IMG/VR virus record: IMGVR_UViG_3300034073_003276
Reading direction: 5' to 3' (one strand)
DNA length: 64,000 nt
Source of the DNA: a virus
Lineage: Duplodnaviria > Caudoviricetes
Both the position numbers and the translations under genes were made by a program. The first letter of the stretch is position 1; every line of letters starts with the position of its first letter. Of this stretch, positions 41,235 to 59,551 are shown one piece after another. The notes beneath the pieces were generated by a model. It searched no databases and was not told the DNA's origin. It worked only from the letters and a program-made list of their open reading frames with translations.

Positions 41235-41295
41235 CTTTATTCTCCTACAAGTCCAGAATTAATCTAAAAGTATTTATAATTTCCTACTTCTTTGT

Positions 41296-48638: not shown

Positions 48639-49481
48639 TCATCCTATAAAATCGTAAGGTGGAAGTTCATAATCCATAGACATTCTTTGTTTTATTTCTG
48701 CAATCTCCTTCTCAGCATCTTCATAAAGTTCTCTTCCATTTAATTCTATTCCACCGGGAAGTCTAACACCTCTAAATTTAATTAAATTCTGTCCCCATTG
48801 ACGCTTCATCAATGCCGTTAAATATTTCTTTAAAAAACTATCATTATAAACTTTTGTAAAATCATTTGGATCTAAAATTCTGTAGCAATCAATTACAATA
48901 AATGTATCCTTTGACTGTGCTCCCCAATCAATATCTAAGTATAATCTATTTTGTCTTTTATTAAATCTTATTTGTTTATCTGTTGTCAAAAGAAAATCAA
49001 TATCTTCAAGGTAAGTTTTTACCATAGCATATTGCAAAAGTTCAACAGAATTAAAATAGTATAAATCATTCAAAAATAATTGATATTTAATACTAAACAT
49101 TCCGCCAGATATAGAACTTGTATCAAATTTAAATATTTTTTCAATTCCAATAACACTATCAGGAACTTGTACGAAATTTGAATTTTCATAAAAGTTAAAT
49201 GATGTTGTACCTATTCCAGAAATTGTTGATGTGCCTGTTGTAGTTACAATTCCAACACCATTAGTTCCTTTTGCAGATCCTCTGCTTATATCTTCTTCAG
49301 TAATCTTATATTTTAAATACATTCGTTCGACACCATCAAAGTGTCTTTCTTGAAAATACTGTAGAGCATCATCTACCAAATCATCTATTTGTTCATCTGC
49401 TAAATTAATTTCTAATATAGGAGCACCTAATCTTCTTAAACAATAATCTATTAATTCTTGTCTTGTTGTCGGTTTTGCCAT
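48639..49481 (-). CDS. gp13: Neck protein
   Basis: LIDYCLRRLGAP, KRQWGQNLIKF, LPGG. Confidence 0.92.
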   Translation of the reverse strand: MAKPTTRQELIDYCLRRLGAPILEINLADEQIDDLVDDALQYFQERHFDGVERMYLKYKITEEDISRGSAKGTNGVGIVTTTGTSTISGIGTTSFNFYENSNFVQVPDSVIGIEKIFKFDTSSISGGMFSIKYQLFLNDLYYFNSVELLQYAMVKTYLEDIDFLLTTDKQIRFNKRQNRLYLDIDWGAQSKDTFIVIDCYRILDPNDFTKVYNDSFLKKYLTALMKRQWGQNLIKFRGVRLPGGIELNGRELYEDAEKEIAEIKQRMSMDYELPPYDFIG

Positions 49482-49930
49482 TAGTAAGATCCTCCATCTA
49501 TAACACTGGACCAGATTGGAACTCCAGAATCGTCTGTTGTAAGAACATAGTTACTTTCTGTTATCGCATAACTTGTTGTTCCTGTAGATGCTAATCGGTC
49601 ATTTGGATCAAAATATGCAATACCATATGGTTCACCTGGAGGATAATAGAAAGACTGCCCTACGGTAAGAATACCTGAAATATTTCCATTTCTTGCAGTA
49701 AATTCGTCAAAATTTAAGTCATCGCCAATATATAAATCACCATCAATGTAAACATCATTATTAAAAGTTGCAACTCCAACAAATGTTGATACGCCACTTA
49801 CATTTAATTGAGTTACTGAAGCAATTCCGCCAATTACATTTTCTGCTATTGCCGCAACAGTAGATCCAGAAATACTAGAGACAACTTTTACTGCATTTTG
49901 TTGTCCTACTCTAACTCTTATATCGGGCAT
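49481..49930 (-). CDS. Hypothetical structural protein
   Basis: Coupled ORF; SGVSTFVGVATF repeat typical of cyanophage fibres. Confidence 0.6.
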   Translation of the reverse strand: MPDIRVRVGQQNAVKVVSSISGSTVAAIAENVIGGIASVTQLNVSGVSTFVGVATFNNDVYIDGDLYIGDDLNFDEFTARNGNISGILTVGQSFYYPPGEPYGIAYFDPNDRLASTGTTSYAITESNYVLTTDDSGVPIWSSVIDGGSY

Positions 49931-50271
49931 TATCTAGTTACTCCTTCTCGCACTAATGCCATACCCTCGATAACTTTACTTTTTTGTCCTCCAGTATCTG
50001 TAATAACTACATCATATACATATCTTCCAGGTTTTAATAAAGACGTTTGCTCATTTGTGAGAGAAATATTTATTTTCCCTTCAAGAGGAATTTCTATGGC
50101 AGCATCAAAATTGATTGCCGTAGAACTTCCTGCCCATTTTCGCAATTGAGAAGAAACCGCATATAAGGACAAATCATAAAACGAATTGGTGGTAGGATCT
50201 TCCAATGTGAATGTTTGACTAAAATCTGACCCAGAATTAATGACTAAATTGTTTACATATACTGATGCCAT
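49930..50271 (-). CDS. BppU-N-like adaptor protein
   Basis: GSDFSQTF...ISLTNEQT...GRYVYDV...EG pattern; TATAAATA at 50295-50302. Confidence 0.6.
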   Translation of the reverse strand: MASVYVNNLVINSGSDFSQTFTLEDPTTNSFYDLSLYAVSSQLRKWAGSSTAINFDAAIEIPLEGKINISLTNEQTSLLKPGRYVYDVVITDTGGQKSKVIEGMALVREGVTR

Positions 50272-50302
50272 GTAATTAGTCTACCTCTACAATTTATTTA
50301 TA

Positions 50303-50470
50303 CTATAGATTCATAGTAGAAATTACTTCTTGTTGTTGCAAATATAGTTTACAATATAGTTTTGCAAAATTTTTTAGTTGCTCTTCATCCAATTCATCAA
50401 TTATTCGAGCATGTTTTTCATACTCAAATAGTTTATTTATTGAATTTAGAGTGATTTCACTTGGATCCAT
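50303..50470 (-). CDS. NblA-like phycobilisome degradation adaptor (55 aa), not in ORF track
   Basis: Hand-translated MDPSEITLNSINKLFEYEKHARIIDELDEEQLKNFAKLYCKLYLQQQEVISTMNL; spacing of L..F..L..Q.K.F..LY matches NblA from memory. Confidence 0.6.
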   Translation of the reverse strand: MDPSEITLNSINKLFEYEKHARIIDELDEEQLKNFAKLYCKLYLQQQEVISTMNL

Positions 50471-50660
50471 TTAAAAACTCCTTTAGTAAAGATTTAATCT
50501 CCTCAATATCCTTTTTCATTTCATCCAACTCTCTTTTTTGAGACTTTCTATTGTTAAGACTATTAACATACTGATTATAAGATGTATTGTCGCAATTGAC
50601 AATTGCCCCAGATTCTTCATCCCTATACAAGTTTGGGTGACCTTTTACTGGTATCATCAT
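50457..50660 (-). CDS. Conserved hypothetical protein (67 aa)
   Basis: VKGHPNLYRDEESGAIVN plus coiled-coil tail. Confidence 0.75.
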   Translation of the reverse strand: MMIPVKGHPNLYRDEESGAIVNCDNTSYNQYVNSLNNRKSQKRELDEMKKDIEEIKSLLKEFLNGSK

Positions 50661-53600
50661 CTGATTGCAATGCTCCTTAAATCTTTAAATCTTGGAGGAT
50701 ATGCTTGATTAGTTGAAGACATAACTATTTTAATTATATATCCAGTAAATTCGCCAAGATTATTAGCAGAAAACTCATATTCTAAGAATTCATTCTCCCT
50801 ACTACTTCTTACAAGAGTATCTGGCAGTCCACTATTATTTGCTGGATTTACTACATCCAGATATCCATCATTATTGTTATCTACGGTTAGATTATCATAT
50901 CCTGGGAATAATTCGAATGCTTGAGCAATTTCACTAGAATCAGGTCTAATTAGACTATAAAGAACTCTAAAGTCAGCAGAAGAATGTCTATAAGCAGATA
51001 GTATAACTTTTAGGGAAGTTGCAGACTGTGATAGTCTAACTGTATTGGAAACATAAACAGAAGAATGTGGGTCTTCGATGAATGAATTAACTCTATTGTC
51101 TGTAGAGTAATTTGATATAGGTGAATTAATTCTATTACTATGGAAATCTGTAAAAGAGTTATCTAAGAATATTTGTGGTGAAAGGTACTTATTAGTTGTT
51201 TGTAAAGTAATTGCTGTAGTGAAAGATTTATTTCTGGGAAGTGCAGTTAAGTATGTATCCTCATTGACTTTCGAGCAAACAATTCTTGTCGAAGACAATT
51301 GATTTAAAGAATTAAGTTGTATATCCTCATAACCTAAGTCATTGAATGATACCTCACTTCCAGAAATACTTGTTCCACTTACACTTCTAATCTTTGCAGA
51401 TACAGAAGTTGCATCAGTTGGAGATATAATTCTGTAAAATGGAATAATGGAGTCATACTGAATATTTTCTGTAGCAAACACATTATTTCCACCAGAATTT
51501 AATTCAGTTTCAAATGAGAGTTGAGGATATCCTGTAGGAGTGTTATCTGCGCTCCTATCTTCACCATTAGAAGTCCTATCAATTTCAATATAGTAACTAT
51601 CAATATCTAAACCAACATCACTAATGTCATGAGTTGTATTAATTCTTCTTAAAGAGACTCCATTAAATTCATACTTATAGACTTGTGCATTAGTGTCGTG
51701 AGGAACTGCAATTGTTGATGATTGTGCTCTTGTTATTGTTTCTAATGTACCAGTTCCAACATCTTCATACTTAATAATCTCATTTTCAATAATTACATAT
51801 CCAGGATTACCTCCACCAACTCCTTTACCCTCAAAGGTCCCAAAGTTTTCAGTACTTGCAACAGAAATAGATGTAGAAGATGCTGTTATAGGCTGGGATA
51901 ATGTAGTTGGGACAACATTTGGTAAAACACCAGATATTGAAACTTTATTATTCTCCGCATACATTCCATGATTAAAGTGATTTACCTTAAGGAAGTTTCC
52001 AGCATATAAAGATCCTGTAGGAGTTGAACTTCTAATATAGGTGGAACCCATAGTCACTGAATTATTAGAATCATCATAATAGACTAAGTTTGCAGTTCCA
52101 TCTATAGTGAAAGAGTTACCCTGGACATTACTCAGATATAAAGTATCAATTCCGTCATTATTTCCAGTGATTGTTATCGTTGCATTTCTTCCACTATTAC
52201 TTGAAACTGAGGAAGTTACAATACCAACAACGTCTCCAATTGCATATCCTGTGCCAGGATTTACTACAGTAGCAACACCAATCACACCACCTGAAGCAGT
52301 AATATCTAAAGTAAGACCAGATCCGTTGCCAATAATATTGAATGTAGATACATCAGAATCGGTAACATAATTAGATCCACCAGTGGTTACCCCAACAGAA
52401 GACACTGAGCATCCTGTGCCAACAATATATCCATAATTATAAGTCTTCACACTTTCACTTACTTTTCTTCCAGTGGTTAAAATTCCAATAGCGTTTGCAT
52501 CGGTAGTTGTTGTAATACCGACACTTAGCAATCTAGGAAGTGCTGTTAATGGATTACTTTGAAGATTTTTAATATAACCATTACTCTCATCTAACGTTGG
52601 ATTATAGAAGTATGCTGTAGAAGGAGTATTTGTTACAAAGTTTGCACGATATAGTGTAAACTTCATATCTTGATATTGATTTGCTGTCCATATAGATCCA
52701 TTTTGGGATTTAAATAGACTGCCTAGAGCAAATTGTTGACTGTAGACAACAGCATTAGCATCAGGTAGATTTGCAGACTGAATAGTCTTTTTGCCCATTT
52801 CTGCAATGAAAACCTCATACTCTACGCTTTCTGGAGCAAGGAGGACAATTGCATATTCTAGTCCAGGAGCAAGATAAATTGGATAATCAAATGTAACTTT
52901 AGTTACTGCAGATGCATCATCTGAAATATTAATTTGATTTGGTCGTAATGTAACTGGATTTCCAATAACTGTTCTTGTTGGAGTACCAAGTTCTACAGTT
53001 CTTACTTGAACTGTTAGAGGATTATTATTAGTGTCCTTTTTATAGAAGAATAAATCTACACTTGTTAAATAAGCACCATTCTCCTCGTCATTTGCAGTTT
53101 CACTTCCACCAACACTAAACGACTGTGCTAAAGGATCATAAAATTCAGTCGTAACATTTGCTATAGTTGTAGTTGTTGTCCTAGTTGTAGTTACTGTAGT
53201 AGTATTTGTAATGGTGGTTTCATATAACTCTAAAGTTCCTTCAGAAACATAGTTTGATGTAGCACTAGAAATGGAAGTGCTTCCAGGTGCTGCAGTTTCG
53301 TTTGTAGGACTTGATGTGACTTTATAAGTTTTATTTCCCGTATTAATTCTAACGTCAGGTGCAGGTGAAGTATTTGGATTTCTGATAAAGAAAGATCCTA
53401 TTAAATCGCCAAAGTTATCAGATACTAGTCTGAGATCTTTTACATATGCTATGGCACCACTTGTTTGTCCAACAAGTTTTGCACCTTTAACTAAATATCC
53501 AGAATATAAACCCTGTGCTTCTTCTGATAATGAATAAGTATCTACATTCAATACTTTTGAAGAAGCACTATATGCGGTTGGTAGAGACTCTGTTTTAATA

Positions 53601-56600
53601 TAAGGATTTATATTAAAAGATGTAGTTGGAGAATCATATGTTCCAAACTTATGATCAGGTCTTGCAACCCTAAAGGAAATAACCTTATTATTGTTTGAGT
53701 CATAACCAAAGACAGTTTCTCCAACTGTGAATGCAGATGATGCTCCAGGATTTTGTAAGGAAGAACTATCCGATATTTCAATAAGTTTCGGAATAAAATC
53801 TACAGATCCATTTCCATCTAGGAATTGATAATATCTTGTAGATGGTTTTAGGTTGGAAATAGAAAACTCAGTATTTCTAGATCTCATATATTCTTCAGGT
53901 CTAGATTCTACTAATCTAGTGACACTTGAAGATGATGTAGTCACATTTGAAGATGCAGTAACACTTTGAGACGCTTCAATAGTTCTTTCAATTTGACCTC
54001 TTCTATCCCAATTTGCTACTCTTATATTTCTAGATCCAACTTCAACTCTAGATCTTTCGACTAAAACATAATCAGTAACAGAAACTGTTTTATTTGGTAA
54101 TTGTACAGTTCTAACCCAGTTATCTCTTTCTGGAGATAATTTTATTGTTCCACTATAAGATACTACATGGAATGGGTTTACATTTTCAACCTGAGTTGCT
54201 AATGGTTGTGATATCCACTTTTCAGAACTATATTTGAGTGAAACTGTTGGACCAGTTTTTTGAGTGTTTGAATCTAAGAGACTATAATTTGTTGATAGAT
54301 CTACAGATTCATTTGTTATATTTTGTGCAGGTGCAAGATAATTTTTTAAACTATTTCTAGATATAATTGGTCCCATCTCTTGCGAATCAGAATCAATTTC
54401 AATTGATGAGAATAAATTGTTTATTCTTGAAGAATCTTTAAAGTCATCTACAAAAAATCCAGTCTTAAATCTATTAAATCCTTCAGAATCTTGTATTTGG
54501 AGTGTTTGTGTACTTAATTCTAACAGAGATAGTGAAGTAACCCTTTCAAGATTTTTTACTCTATTCTCAATTAATCCAATATCTCTCATAGTATATCTTC
54601 TATTATCAACGAGAGATAATATGGCATTCTTAACATTATAAAGATATGGTGGTAAAGTAACAGTTCCCAATTCCATCAAATCATCAGTCTTTAACGGAGA
54701 CTTTGGATTTATAGATGATAATCCTTCCAGGTAAATAAACTCACCATTTTTATTCAAATAAATTTTATCAACTCTTCCAAGATAATAGTCATAACCAACA
54801 ATAGTGCTTTCATTTGGTGTCAAGTTTAACTTGATAGAAGAACTAAAGTCTCTATTAGAAAAATCAAAGGGTGAAGAAGTATTTGAGCTAAAAACAGATA
54901 CTCTTGGTCTAAAATCTAAAGTATCTGTTGCTCTAATATCATTGTTTCCAATTGAAGGAACATCTGTTGCAAACTGCTCTTTATTATAACTTGCTACAGT
55001 AAATACATCACCGTTGTCGGTTGAGGGTATTGTATAATGGTCAAATACAACTAATAATCTCTTTGAAGGTTCAGTTTCTCCTTCGTTACGAACAAGTCTT
55101 GAATAGTCATAATATTGTTCTTTTTGACCCTTATCTAAAGTAAATCTATTAGTAATATCATTATAATTTCCTGGCGTTAGAAAATCAATTTCACCAACAA
55201 TATTTGATTCCTGGAAAGTTACAGATTCATTATTATTAAAGCGATTTGAGTTTAGGTAGATAATCCCAACACTATTAGTAGATCTGGATACTACTCTAGC
55301 GATACATCCACTTTCTGATCCTAAAATATTTTCGCCTACAATTACATTATCTCCAATATTTAAAACCGTGCTGAATGATAAAGTGTCTACAGATGGATTT
55401 GATGTATCTAAAGACTCATAAACTGCTAAGACTTTTGATACATCTGGGTAGTTAATAGAAATCTCTTCATCCTGCACTCTAAGTCCATAGTATTGATTGT
55501 ATTCCAATCCATCATTGATTGAAGTACTAACTCCCGTACCAGACTCTGGATACTTAGAATATACTACATTTATAGACTTACTACGATTAAACTGCTTTTG
55601 CTTACTTTGCACTCCATTCTTAATGAAAGTAGCATTGATTGATGAAGTTATTTTTCCATTAGTAAGGTTTGATATTACTACTTGATTACTAGATAAAGAA
55701 AATTGATCTGATGTTAAAGATTGAGTAGTGCCATCATCATAATGAACAGAATAACGCTCCTCGTCAAAAGGTGCAAATAACGCAGTCGATAATCCAGAAG
55801 GTAATGAAAAATCCGAAACTGTTAAGGTTATTTGATTAGAAGAAACTGTTTTTGCGCTTGTAGATTGTGCGCTAAAAGTTAAGATAGAATCGTTTAAATC
55901 TACCTGCGATACATTTGTGTTTGGCAGTTCTGCATATAAGTATCCTTTATCAGAATTTCTAATCTTAGGTATTCCTAAACTAAATGATAAATTTGTCGCA
56001 ACTCCTACTCCACCATCACAAACACCCGTAACTGTAGCAATTCCTGCAACAACCATAGATGTTCCAGTAGAATTTACACTGGAGACAACATTAAAAGTTT
56101 CAGTTGTTTTATCTGGTGCCTGGAATCTTACTATAGAACCAGGTTTGATAGTGTTAAAAAACTTTCCTGGAGAAGTTACTACACCACCTGCAGTGATATT
56201 GATAGTATCTGAAGCATTAAAACCGATAGGAAGTTGTCTATCTAATACAGAGTCTCCAATAAATGATGTGGTAAATCCAGAAACAGATATTGGTTGGTAA
56301 ATTTGCTTAATATCTGTAGTATCATATACAGTTATTTCAAAAATTGATCTTGGATATAACTCCAATCCATTAATAACTAATTGCTCACCTCTTACAAAAG
56401 TACCAGATGTTTGCCTTAACTTAATTGTTGTAGTTCCATCACCAGCAATAGCAGCATATCCAGATGCTCCACTACTTTTACCTTTTACATAAGATGATAC
56501 TGGCAATTGTGTTGAAGAAAGACCTTGATTCAATACTAAGGTAGTATATGTTTGTACATCATAAAGATACAAATCCCAATTAGTAGATGCTCCGGAATAC

Positions 56601-57940
56601 GCAGCATCAGTTAATCTAAAATTATAAACTTTAGCGTCTCCAATTCGTGTACTTGAATCTGGATCTCCCGAATCACTTCTTCTAACAGAGTGAATTTCTA
56701 CGGATTCATTTTGCTTTGGAGATCCTGTGATATTATTAATCCTCAGTAAATTTCCCATTTCAAAGGGAATATTTACACTCTCTACATTCTGGGTTTCTCT
56801 TGGTTTGTTTACATCAAGGATAGTAGTAGTAACTTTTTCTATATCATATCCTTTAACATATGCTTTTCCTGGAGATAACTTTACACACATTAAGTCATCT
56901 GATGGATTATTTCCAGATTCTGTTTTCTGGCTATCAAAAAATAATCCATTATTACCAAGTCTATCATTAAGAGAATTGTGTAAAGAAATTTTAAAAGGTT
57001 CTACTGAATAATTTCCAGACTCATCAAAAGTTCTTTGCGCCAGATAATCTCTTATTACTGAGTATTGTGTCTTAGTATTAACCTTTTTAATCTCACCATT
57101 TTCAATTCTAAGAATTTCAATAAAATCAGTGTCTGTATCAACACTATCTAAAGTCTTTTTAGTTAAAGATAGATTTATTTTAAATCTATCTGCTCCTGGT
57201 GCTGCAAAATTTGTAAATCCTTTTGCATTATCATATAAAGAAGAATCTTCTTTAGATGTTACAATTTCTTCTGATACTTTTAATCCTACTCTATATGAAG
57301 GAGTATTAGAATAATAATCAAGAATAATAGTTTGCTTGGTTACATTTGCAAAAGTGCCTCTTACAAAATAAATTCCATCATCAATCGAAGCTGCAGATCC
57401 TGTAGAAGTAGCATCAGTAGATATTAAAGATGCAAAAGGAGTTCCAGATGTAATTGTAGTGTTACCATAAACTACACTTTCATTAGAAACTAATGATTCT
57501 CCATCTTGAAATGGAGTAAAATTAAAATCGTTATCAGAATCTATGTATTTTACATATAAAGTAACATAGTCTAATCCATTAGATGAATTTGGAATTTCAA
57601 CTTTTTGTACTGATGCAGTAACACCAGAAATTTGACCTTCTATTAACTTTCCAACATACTGATTAATATACGCTGATATGTTAACGCCAAAAGATGTTGA
57701 ATTTAGCTTAACTGAATAAAAGTTAGAATCATAAGTAGTATTTCCTGGAATTACTACAGACCCTTCTTTAAATATGTGACTTCCAAAAGATTCAATTTGA
57801 TTTTGTAATATTGATTGAATATTATTTAATTCTCTTGCCTGTACTGGTCTTCCTGGAGTGAAAAGAACTTTGTAAAAATCCTTTTGAGCATCAAAGTCAT
57901 CAAAATAAGGACTTACATTTAGGTTTGTCTTTTGTGCCAT
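50657..57940 (-). CDS. Very large baseplate/fibre structural protein (VrlC/DUF4815-like)
   Basis: MAQKTNLNVSPYFDDFD...GRPVQARELN; follows gp8. Confidence 0.8.
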   Translation of the reverse strand: MAQKTNLNVSPYFDDFDAQKDFYKVLFTPGRPVQARELNNIQSILQNQIESFGSHIFKEGSVVIPGNTTYDSNFYSVKLNSTSFGVNISAYINQYVGKLIEGQISGVTASVQKVEIPNSSNGLDYVTLYVKYIDSDNDFNFTPFQDGESLVSNESVVYGNTTITSGTPFASLISTDATSTGSAASIDDGIYFVRGTFANVTKQTIILDYYSNTPSYRVGLKVSEEIVTSKEDSSLYDNAKGFTNFAAPGADRFKINLSLTKKTLDSVDTDTDFIEILRIENGEIKKVNTKTQYSVIRDYLAQRTFDESGNYSVEPFKISLHNSLNDRLGNNGLFFDSQKTESGNNPSDDLMCVKLSPGKAYVKGYDIEKVTTTILDVNKPRETQNVESVNIPFEMGNLLRINNITGSPKQNESVEIHSVRRSDSGDPDSSTRIGDAKVYNFRLTDAAYSGASTNWDLYLYDVQTYTTLVLNQGLSSTQLPVSSYVKGKSSGASGYAAIAGDGTTTIKLRQTSGTFVRGEQLVINGLELYPRSIFEITVYDTTDIKQIYQPISVSGFTTSFIGDSVLDRQLPIGFNASDTINITAGGVVTSPGKFFNTIKPGSIVRFQAPDKTTETFNVVSSVNSTGTSMVVAGIATVTGVCDGGVGVATNLSFSLGIPKIRNSDKGYLYAELPNTNVSQVDLNDSILTFSAQSTSAKTVSSNQITLTVSDFSLPSGLSTALFAPFDEERYSVHYDDGTTQSLTSDQFSLSSNQVVISNLTNGKITSSINATFIKNGVQSKQKQFNRSKSINVVYSKYPESGTGVSTSINDGLEYNQYYGLRVQDEEISINYPDVSKVLAVYESLDTSNPSVDTLSFSTVLNIGDNVIVGENILGSESGCIARVVSRSTNSVGIIYLNSNRFNNNESVTFQESNIVGEIDFLTPGNYNDITNRFTLDKGQKEQYYDYSRLVRNEGETEPSKRLLVVFDHYTIPSTDNGDVFTVASYNKEQFATDVPSIGNNDIRATDTLDFRPRVSVFSSNTSSPFDFSNRDFSSSIKLNLTPNESTIVGYDYYLGRVDKIYLNKNGEFIYLEGLSSINPKSPLKTDDLMELGTVTLPPYLYNVKNAILSLVDNRRYTMRDIGLIENRVKNLERVTSLSLLELSTQTLQIQDSEGFNRFKTGFFVDDFKDSSRINNLFSSIEIDSDSQEMGPIISRNSLKNYLAPAQNITNESVDLSTNYSLLDSNTQKTGPTVSLKYSSEKWISQPLATQVENVNPFHVVSYSGTIKLSPERDNWVRTVQLPNKTVSVTDYVLVERSRVEVGSRNIRVANWDRRGQIERTIEASQSVTASSNVTTSSSSVTRLVESRPEEYMRSRNTEFSISNLKPSTRYYQFLDGNGSVDFIPKLIEISDSSSLQNPGASSAFTVGETVFGYDSNNNKVISFRVARPDHKFGTYDSPTTSFNINPYIKTESLPTAYSASSKVLNVDTYSLSEEAQGLYSGYLVKGAKLVGQTSGAIAYVKDLRLVSDNFGDLIGSFFIRNPNTSPAPDVRINTGNKTYKVTSSPTNETAAPGSTSISSATSNYVSEGTLELYETTITNTTTVTTTRTTTTTIANVTTEFYDPLAQSFSVGGSETANDEENGAYLTSVDLFFYKKDTNNNPLTVQVRTVELGTPTRTVIGNPVTLRPNQINISDDASAVTKVTFDYPIYLAPGLEYAIVLLAPESVEYEVFIAEMGKKTIQSANLPDANAVVYSQQFALGSLFKSQNGSIWTANQYQDMKFTLYRANFVTNTPSTAYFYNPTLDESNGYIKNLQSNPLTALPRLLSVGITTTTDANAIGILTTGRKVSESVKTYNYGYIVGTGCSVSSVGVTTGGSNYVTDSDVSTFNIIGNGSGLTLDITASGGVIGVATVVNPGTGYAIGDVVGIVTSSVSSNSGRNATITITGNNDGIDTLYLSNVQGNSFTIDGTANLVYYDDSNNSVTMGSTYIRSSTPTGSLYAGNFLKVNHFNHGMYAENNKVSISGVLPNVVPTTLSQPITASSTSISVASTENFGTFEGKGVGGGNPGYVIIENEIIKYEDVGTGTLETITRAQSSTIAVPHDTNAQVYKYEFNGVSLRRINTTHDISDVGLDIDSYYIEIDRTSNGEDRSADNTPTGYPQLSFETELNSGGNNVFATENIQYDSIIPFYRIISPTDATSVSAKIRSVSGTSISGSEVSFNDLGYEDIQLNSLNQLSSTRIVCSKVNEDTYLTALPRNKSFTTAITLQTTNKYLSPQIFLDNSFTDFHSNRINSPISNYSTDNRVNSFIEDPHSSVYVSNTVRLSQSATSLKVILSAYRHSSADFRVLYSLIRPDSSEIAQAFELFPGYDNLTVDNNNDGYLDVVNPANNSGLPDTLVRSSRENEFLEYEFSANNLGEFTGYIIKIVMSSTNQAYPPRFKDLRSIAIR

Positions 57941-59518: not shown

Positions 59519-59551
59519 TTATATTGATGTTTTTTTTATATTTATATGAGG

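Follow-up and report, generated by a model that had tools for sequence, protein, structure and literature searches.

Cyanobacterial NblA, the adaptor by which the light-harvesting antenna is tagged for degradation, works as a dimer held together largely by its second helix and is marked by a conserved N-terminal L-S-L-E-Q-x-F motif and by conserved C-terminal Leu/Lys. Among viral counterparts, the NblA of the T7-like phage S-TIP37, encoded in a DNA replication and metabolism gene cluster, drives phycobilisome degradation, shortens the latent period and also led to the cleavage of non-antenna host proteins (Nature 2025, PMC12695635), and the same 2025 study reports that antenna dismantling by T7-like phages measurably lowers oceanic cyanobacterial photosynthesis (PMC12695635). 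An NblA from an uncultured marine cyanophage has likewise been shown to be active, in a study in which marine phage NblAs gave poor PF04485 scores, several of them lay in unannotated ORFs, and one of the two viral NblAs tested failed to complement, a host partner being proposed (Nadel et al., bioRxiv 10.1101/494369). In cyanomyoviruses, the designation has come from profile comparison: ORF237 of S-SCSM1 was called NblA by HHpred, and seven cyanomyovirus homologs, including QPX48163.1 of S-SRM01 (96.9%, E 2.5e-2), were listed with 96-97% HHpred probability to the NblA of T. vulcanus (PMC9602691, Table S4). The S-SCSM2R copy is annotated as nblA, and no experimental test of any member of this clade was found in the literature. 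The ORF described here is, by its sequence, a further member of this group already published as NblA-like, with a predicted function; QPX48163.1 (accession checked) is its syntenic S-SRM01 ortholog and is 74% identical to it.

The window, a 64,000-nucleotide stretch of tailed-phage DNA (IMG/VR record IMGVR_UViG_3300034073_003276), carries all of its large ORFs on the minus strand. A sequence-only reading of this DNA had pointed to a 55-aa ORF overlapping the upstream stop, and the ORF is indeed present on the minus strand at 50303..50470, with 55 codons and an ATG start that overlaps the end of a 67-aa gene by 14 nt (50457..50470; frames ...NGSK-stop and MDPS...). A Shine-Dalgarno sequence, AAGGAG (50478..50483, minus), lies 7 nt before the ATG, within the 3' end of the 67-aa gene. 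The two peptides that the reading had singled out are also found where it placed them, ITLNSINKLF being residues 6-15, followed by 11 residues and then by LDEEQLKNFAKLY, residues 27-39. The ORF product matches phrog_27081, a family of unassigned function, with an E-value of 1.2e-18 (residues 1-53 aligned to positions 1-54 of the 59-position profile); a search of 5.8 billion proteins returned 260 homologs, 121 cluster representatives were retrieved at E<=1e-3 among 1.84 billion proteins, and at least 364 relatives occur in IMG/VR. An alignment of 45 close homologs holds 16 invariant columns, including F15-E-Y-E-K-H20, R22 and K37-L-Y-C40; dN/dS against the S-SRM01 ortholog is about 0.13, at a dS near saturation; and all three variants within the ORF, from one natural DNA contig spanning it and with codon positions assigned by hand, are synonymous. 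Given the family match, the many homologs, the invariant columns, the low dN/dS and the synonymous variants, 50303-50470 is a real, conserved gene and not a chance ORF. Its GenBank orthologs are annotated, mostly as "hypothetical protein". DNA near-identical to 49900-51400 turns up in metagenome runs from 12 studies, whose labels are subsurface, soil, marine sediment, marine and freshwater; the giant gene within that interval shows many strain variants among the metagenome runs, unlike the small ORF with its synonymous-only variants (one contig).

The neighbourhood of the gene is that of a virion module. The run that ends with it has as its first large gene one for a 2427-aa giant structural protein (50657..57940, minus), named VrlC/VriC in relatives, whose 3' end is overlapped by the 67-aa gene (50457..50660, minus; phrog_473, "virion structural protein", T4-like gene cluster 112) that lies directly upstream of the NblA-like ORF; downstream of the ORF follows a 113-aa gene for an LtfC-like beta-sandwich (49930..50271, minus; phrog_3304). 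The nearest isolate, the freshwater Synechococcus phage S-SRM01 (Kyanoviridae; 74% nucleotide identity over the stretch), has the same order of giant VriC/VrlC gene, 67-aa virion protein gene, small ORF, LtfC-like 113-aa gene, baseplate-wedge-like gene and gp13, and S-SM2 shares the S-SRM01 order. Such an address invites the alternative that the product serves the baseplate or tail-fibre module, as a small helical factor in morphogenesis or as a minor virion component, its likeness to NblA being a convergent two-helix hairpin. The phrog_473 gene is immediately upstream of and overlapping the ORF in 80 of the 80 closest IMG/VR loci, the LtfC-like gene comes next after it in 63 of them, and the entire surrounding run is structural, as judged from PHROG matches and from the annotation of relatives. 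Distribution speaks the other way. The family is carried by only about 25 of some 460 cyanomyovirus records (about 5%) and by none of the non-cyanophage T4-like phages that share gp13; in the Prochlorococcus phage P-SSM2, the giant gene and its 67-aa neighbour are both present, yet the ORF is missing, and with it the NGSK-stop/MDP overlap that S-SRM01 and S-SM2 retain; and the S-SCSM1 homolog is placed elsewhere, between a virion protein gene and a helicase gene. On the strength of this limited carriage, of the absence from P-SSM2 and from non-cyanophage T4-like phages, and of the different position in S-SCSM1, the NblA-like gene is a sporadic, cyanophage-restricted accessory gene rather than a core structural one, and a role in morphogenesis is judged unlikely.

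The gene that follows the phrog_473 homolog in P-SSM2, PSSM2_117, was considered as a hidden NblA-like homolog and rejected, as it matches the 149-aa gene of the window (49481-49930, minus). The N-terminus of that gene (MPDIRVRVGQQNAVKV...) matches the entire 75-aa PSSM2_117 (P-SSM2 L006:1223-1450) and, in addition, N-terminal parts of very large baseplate-wedge PHROGs; this likeness in sequence suggests a shared attachment module.

A pattern scan covering 185,579 species genomes yielded no cellular relatives of the family; two genome scans taken together gave neither such a relative nor usable NblA loci from cyanobacteria. The isolates with the gene are all Synechococcus phages (23-25 phage records). 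An attempt to infer the host from the balance of Synechococcus and Prochlorococcus isolates was set aside as uninformative, about 95% of cyanomyovirus records being Synechococcus phages in any case; occurrence in viruses of phycobilisome-bearing organisms fits an antenna-directed role, but weakly, given this base rate. The family domain also appears in other arrangements: it is tandemly duplicated within one 134-aa protein (P0128), and in two further proteins (P0180 and P0181) it is joined to a phrog_3426 domain (about 70 aa), the order of the two domains varying. In S-SKS1 (HQ633071.1, 163938-164345), 22 nt separate the NblA-like gene from a phrog_3426 gene upstream of it, and the phrog_3426 domain, too, is confined to Synechococcus phages.

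Direct sequence searches did not connect the family with NblA. The sequence-only reading had proposed the Pfam HMM PF04485 as a check of its NblA assignment, and on this point it fails: the profile (gathering score 25 bits) gave no match at E<=10 to the ORF or to any of 61 relatives (0 of 62 diverse family members), nor was it matched anywhere in the S-SRM01 genome. In HMMER searches, family profiles did not retrieve the NblA chains among PDB sequences; phmmer with a distant family member returned noise only; home-built NblA HMMs ranked the ORF no better than noise among the 694 ORFs of the window; and a protein-language-model Atlas search retrieved only unnamed clusters of the family itself. 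This lack of an NblA signal by HMMER is a further point in favour of a morphogenesis factor. Comparison of profile with profile gave a different result, and counts against such a factor. True NblAs for comparison were assembled from Ma-LMM01-type phage copies and from Nostocales, Acaryochloris and Chroococcidiopsis copies (plasmid records and protein database), and a set of T7-like cyanophage NblAs was seeded with the validated S-TIP37 gene; the home-built HMMs were also made from these sequences. With hhalign, the 62-member family alignment scored 19.9-20.7 (P 0.0016-0.0019) against 18 cyanobacterial and Ma-LMM01-type NblAs, which is more than any of 120 column shuffles (mean 9.8, sd 2.2, maximum 18.9) and more than the reversed profile (11.6); the probability without secondary structure was 14%, against 89% (P 2e-6) for the T7-like phage NblAs that served as positive control with the same profile. 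The merged alignment is full-length, with 51 columns in register over both helices. No similarity was seen between the family and the T7-like phage NblAs (P 0.55), and a narrow alignment of Ma-LMM01-type NblAs, too shallow for the purpose, gave P 0.01 and a probability of 4%. Of the L-S-L-E-Q-x-F motif, the family retains the Leu and Phe positions in the hhalign alignment but not the Glu-Gln pair; K-x-F-E-Y-E-K stands in place of the motif, a K-L-Y-x-K-L-Y-L-x-Q-Q-E stretch is conserved in helix 2, and the chain ends in a short C-terminal tail that varies within the family. The profile-profile likeness to NblA, taken by itself, appears weak, if higher than in every shuffle.

The best match of the family profile among PDB sequences was to the anti-CRISPR AcrIIA15, over 21 residues with a near-identical L-x-L-N-S-x-x-K-L-F-E-Y (E 0.1-0.4; window 50427-50455, ORF residues 6-15), from which an anti-defence or DNA-binding helical protein might be imagined. 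The E-value is not significant, however, only one helix is covered, AcrIIA15 is absent from both fold searches described below, and the gene context holds nothing related to defence; as no fold match accompanies it, the sequence match is probably due to chance, and a function of this kind is highly improbable.

Structure prediction supplies much of the case for NblA. AlphaFold2 with the family alignment yielded a confident model (pLDDT 93) in which helix 11-25 and helix 29-53 are joined by a three-residue loop. In a VIA exhaustive alignment of this model with 48,161 PDB representatives, NblA entries took ranks 1, 2 and 6, namely 1ojh_A of Nostoc PCC 7120 (Z 6.8, rmsd 1.0 Å, 49 of 52 residues), 2q8v_A of T. 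vulcanus (Z 6.0) and 3cs5_A of S. elongatus (Z 5.0, rmsd 1.1 Å over 45 residues); a second model, built for a relative with 36% identity to the window protein (pLDDT 90.8), placed NblA at ranks 1, 2 and 5 among the same number of chains. Values of Z between 6 and 7 are middling for helical models and the two-helix hairpin is a common shape, as proponents of a convergent morphogenesis factor would stress; against that reading, NblA tops two independent searches of the whole PDB, and the fold evidence has weight because all three NblA representatives stand near the head of both lists with nearly the whole chain covered. Foldseek searches with the model, in the PDB and in AFDB clusters, returned nothing meaningful; among the fold searches, NblA came up in the VIA alignment and in the Atlas shape search only. 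A shape search of the ESM Atlas returned the family's own clusters, then a 137-aa T4 Y07B cluster and then the NblA/ycf18 PF04485 cluster (TM 0.76). The Y07B cluster, which is viral and carries the label "Bacteriophage T4 protein Y07B domain" (PF27001), matches over all 55 residues with a TM of 0.86, higher than the NblA cluster, and may represent a fused form of the family.

The product is also predicted to form a homodimer. The dimer score was 0.44 against 0.00 for the best control, with runs agreeing in at least 98% of contacts and a partner pLDDT of at least 76; of the proteins solved as one-chain pairs, 20 of 30 attain this mark, as against 1 of 23 among those solved as single chains. The pass may in part reflect the predictor's memory of, or likeness to, solved NblA dimers. 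The predicted interface comprises residues 32-48 of helix 2 together with helix-1 positions, and the conserved E18, K19 and R22 lie outside the residues listed for it. Such residues would suit a partner site, not necessarily the canonical one, and they lend some substance to the alternative that the NblA fold serves another client, either as a Clp adaptor or host-takeover protein for non-phycobilisome targets or as a modulator of host NblA through mixed dimers. The extreme divergence of the protein from all tested NblAs, motif positions included, agrees with this alternative, as do the precedents of non-antenna cleavage by a tested viral NblA (PMC12695635) and of the failed complementation for which a host partner was proposed (10.1101/494369). 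Positive evidence for another client is lacking, however, and carriage confined to phages isolated on phycobilisome-bearing hosts fits the canonical target, weakly so in view of the base rate; a different client is therefore regarded as unlikely.

Taken together, the fold, the weak profile-profile similarity, the predicted dimerisation, the distribution and the prior HHpred work argue that the ORF product is probably a highly divergent NblA-like protein, acting as a predicted adaptor for phycobilisome-directed proteolysis. The NblA likeness claimed by the sequence-only reading is thereby upheld as regards fold, weak profile-profile similarity, predicted dimer, cyanophage-only distribution and the published HHpred result for the ortholog, and is not borne out by the PF04485 HMM. 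By analogy with cyanobacterial and tested viral NblAs, the helix-loop-helix product would pair via helix 2, and the dimer would link phycobiliproteins of the host to ClpC, a chaperone, allowing host Clp protease to take the antenna apart during infection; loss of the antenna would free amino acids and cut light capture.

The timing of such an attack can be approached from the position of the gene and from its promoters. Being translationally coupled to a gene for a virion protein, at the close of a long run of structural genes, the ORF would probably yield a mainly late product, and late expression is plausible from the operon position. Perfect matches to the T4-type late promoter motif TATAAATA number 10 in the window, not above shuffles (6.2 expected), so that the signal lies in strand bias: 9 of the 10 are on the coding (minus) strand (e.g., 50295-50302, 59539-59546 and 41271-41278), and they lie between genes, apparently just upstream of them as read from coordinates. 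The copy at 50295..50302 (minus) comes directly after the stop of the NblA-like ORF and would serve the 49930..50271 gene rather than the ORF itself. Upstream of the ORF, the nearest perfect motif (59539-59546) is about 9 kb off, and late transcription of the ORF would consequently have to read through a unit of about 9 kb. Inside the 67-aa gene there is also a sigma-70-like site, TTGTCA-17-TATAAT (11 of 12; 50574..50602, minus), with a -10 that ends 103 nt before the ATG of the ORF. The best sigma-70-like match occupies this position in 60 of 79 relatives, 26 of which score at least 10 of 12, and in P-SSM2, which is without the ORF, this match is missing as well. Because the -10 coincides with the conserved Tyr-Asn codons of the 67-aa gene, promoter function and coding constraint are inseparable here; the site is a possible internal promoter, and it may allow earlier expression of the ORF from some 100 nt upstream. 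Metatranscriptome reads matching the stretch came from one run and cover 51213-51400 only, inside the giant gene.

A more specific scenario would have the late structural operon acquire an NblA-fold adaptor, in translational coupling with a virion protein, with degradation of the antenna or of other host proteins occurring late or through delivery in the virion, and thus differing in timing, and perhaps in client, from that by T7-like NblA. The text on the S-SCSM1 virion proteome makes no statement on an NblA-like protein in the particle, and this scenario is put forward as a long shot. The preferred reading, a divergent NblA-like adaptor directed at the phycobilisome, would imply, if the protein is active, that antenna dismantling extends to T4-like cyanophages of freshwater type. 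Counts of viral NblA carriage in metagenomes are probably too low, since the clade is too divergent for Pfam-based annotation, and at least 364 IMG/VR loci belong to the sub-branch of this ORF alone. The fixed place of the gene at the end of a structural run likewise raises the question of when in infection the antenna is attacked.

Among described systems, the closest is the cyanomyovirus NblA-like group itself (phrog_27081), which comprises S-SRM01 QPX48163.1, S-SM2 YP_004322257.1 (gp101), and the copies of Bellamy, SynMITS9220M01, S-SKS1, S-B43/S-B05, S-SCSM1 (ORF237), S-SCSM2R (ORF118) and S-TIM5. These belong to the same family and have the same length as the window ORF, with tblastn identities to it of 74% for S-SRM01 and of 39-53% for S-SM2, Bellamy, S-TIM5, S-SCSM1 and S-SCSM2R; in S-SRM01, S-SM2 and Bellamy the gene is placed after the phrog_473 gene, as in the window. 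S-SRM01 nonetheless represents a separate phage genome, at about 74% nucleotide identity over the stretch. The cyanobacterial NblAs (PF04485; 1OJH, 2Q8V, 3CS5) resemble the window protein in their size of about 55-65 aa, in their helix-loop-helix, on which it superposes at 1.0-1.5 Å, and in its predicted helix-2 homodimer, and differ from it in that the window ORF falls below any HMMER threshold for PF04485, has L-S-L-E-Q-x-F replaced and has no cellular homolog found. With the NblA gene of the marine Synechococcus phage S-TIP37, the window ORF shares the character of a small viral gene overlapping its neighbours, and the same role is proposed for it; the S-TIP37 protein, however, aligns with cyanobacterial NblA (hhalign P 2e-6), whereas the window family shows P 0.55 against the T7-like NblAs, and the S-TIP37 gene resides in a replication and metabolism cluster whereas that of the window resides in a structural run. 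Finally, the NblAs of the freshwater phages Ma-LMM01, MaMV-DC and PaV-LD are recent host-derived copies that pass PF04485 and lie beside nucleotide-metabolism genes, in which respects they differ from the window ORF; they are nevertheless, like it, phage-borne and found in a freshwater-type cyanophage lineage.
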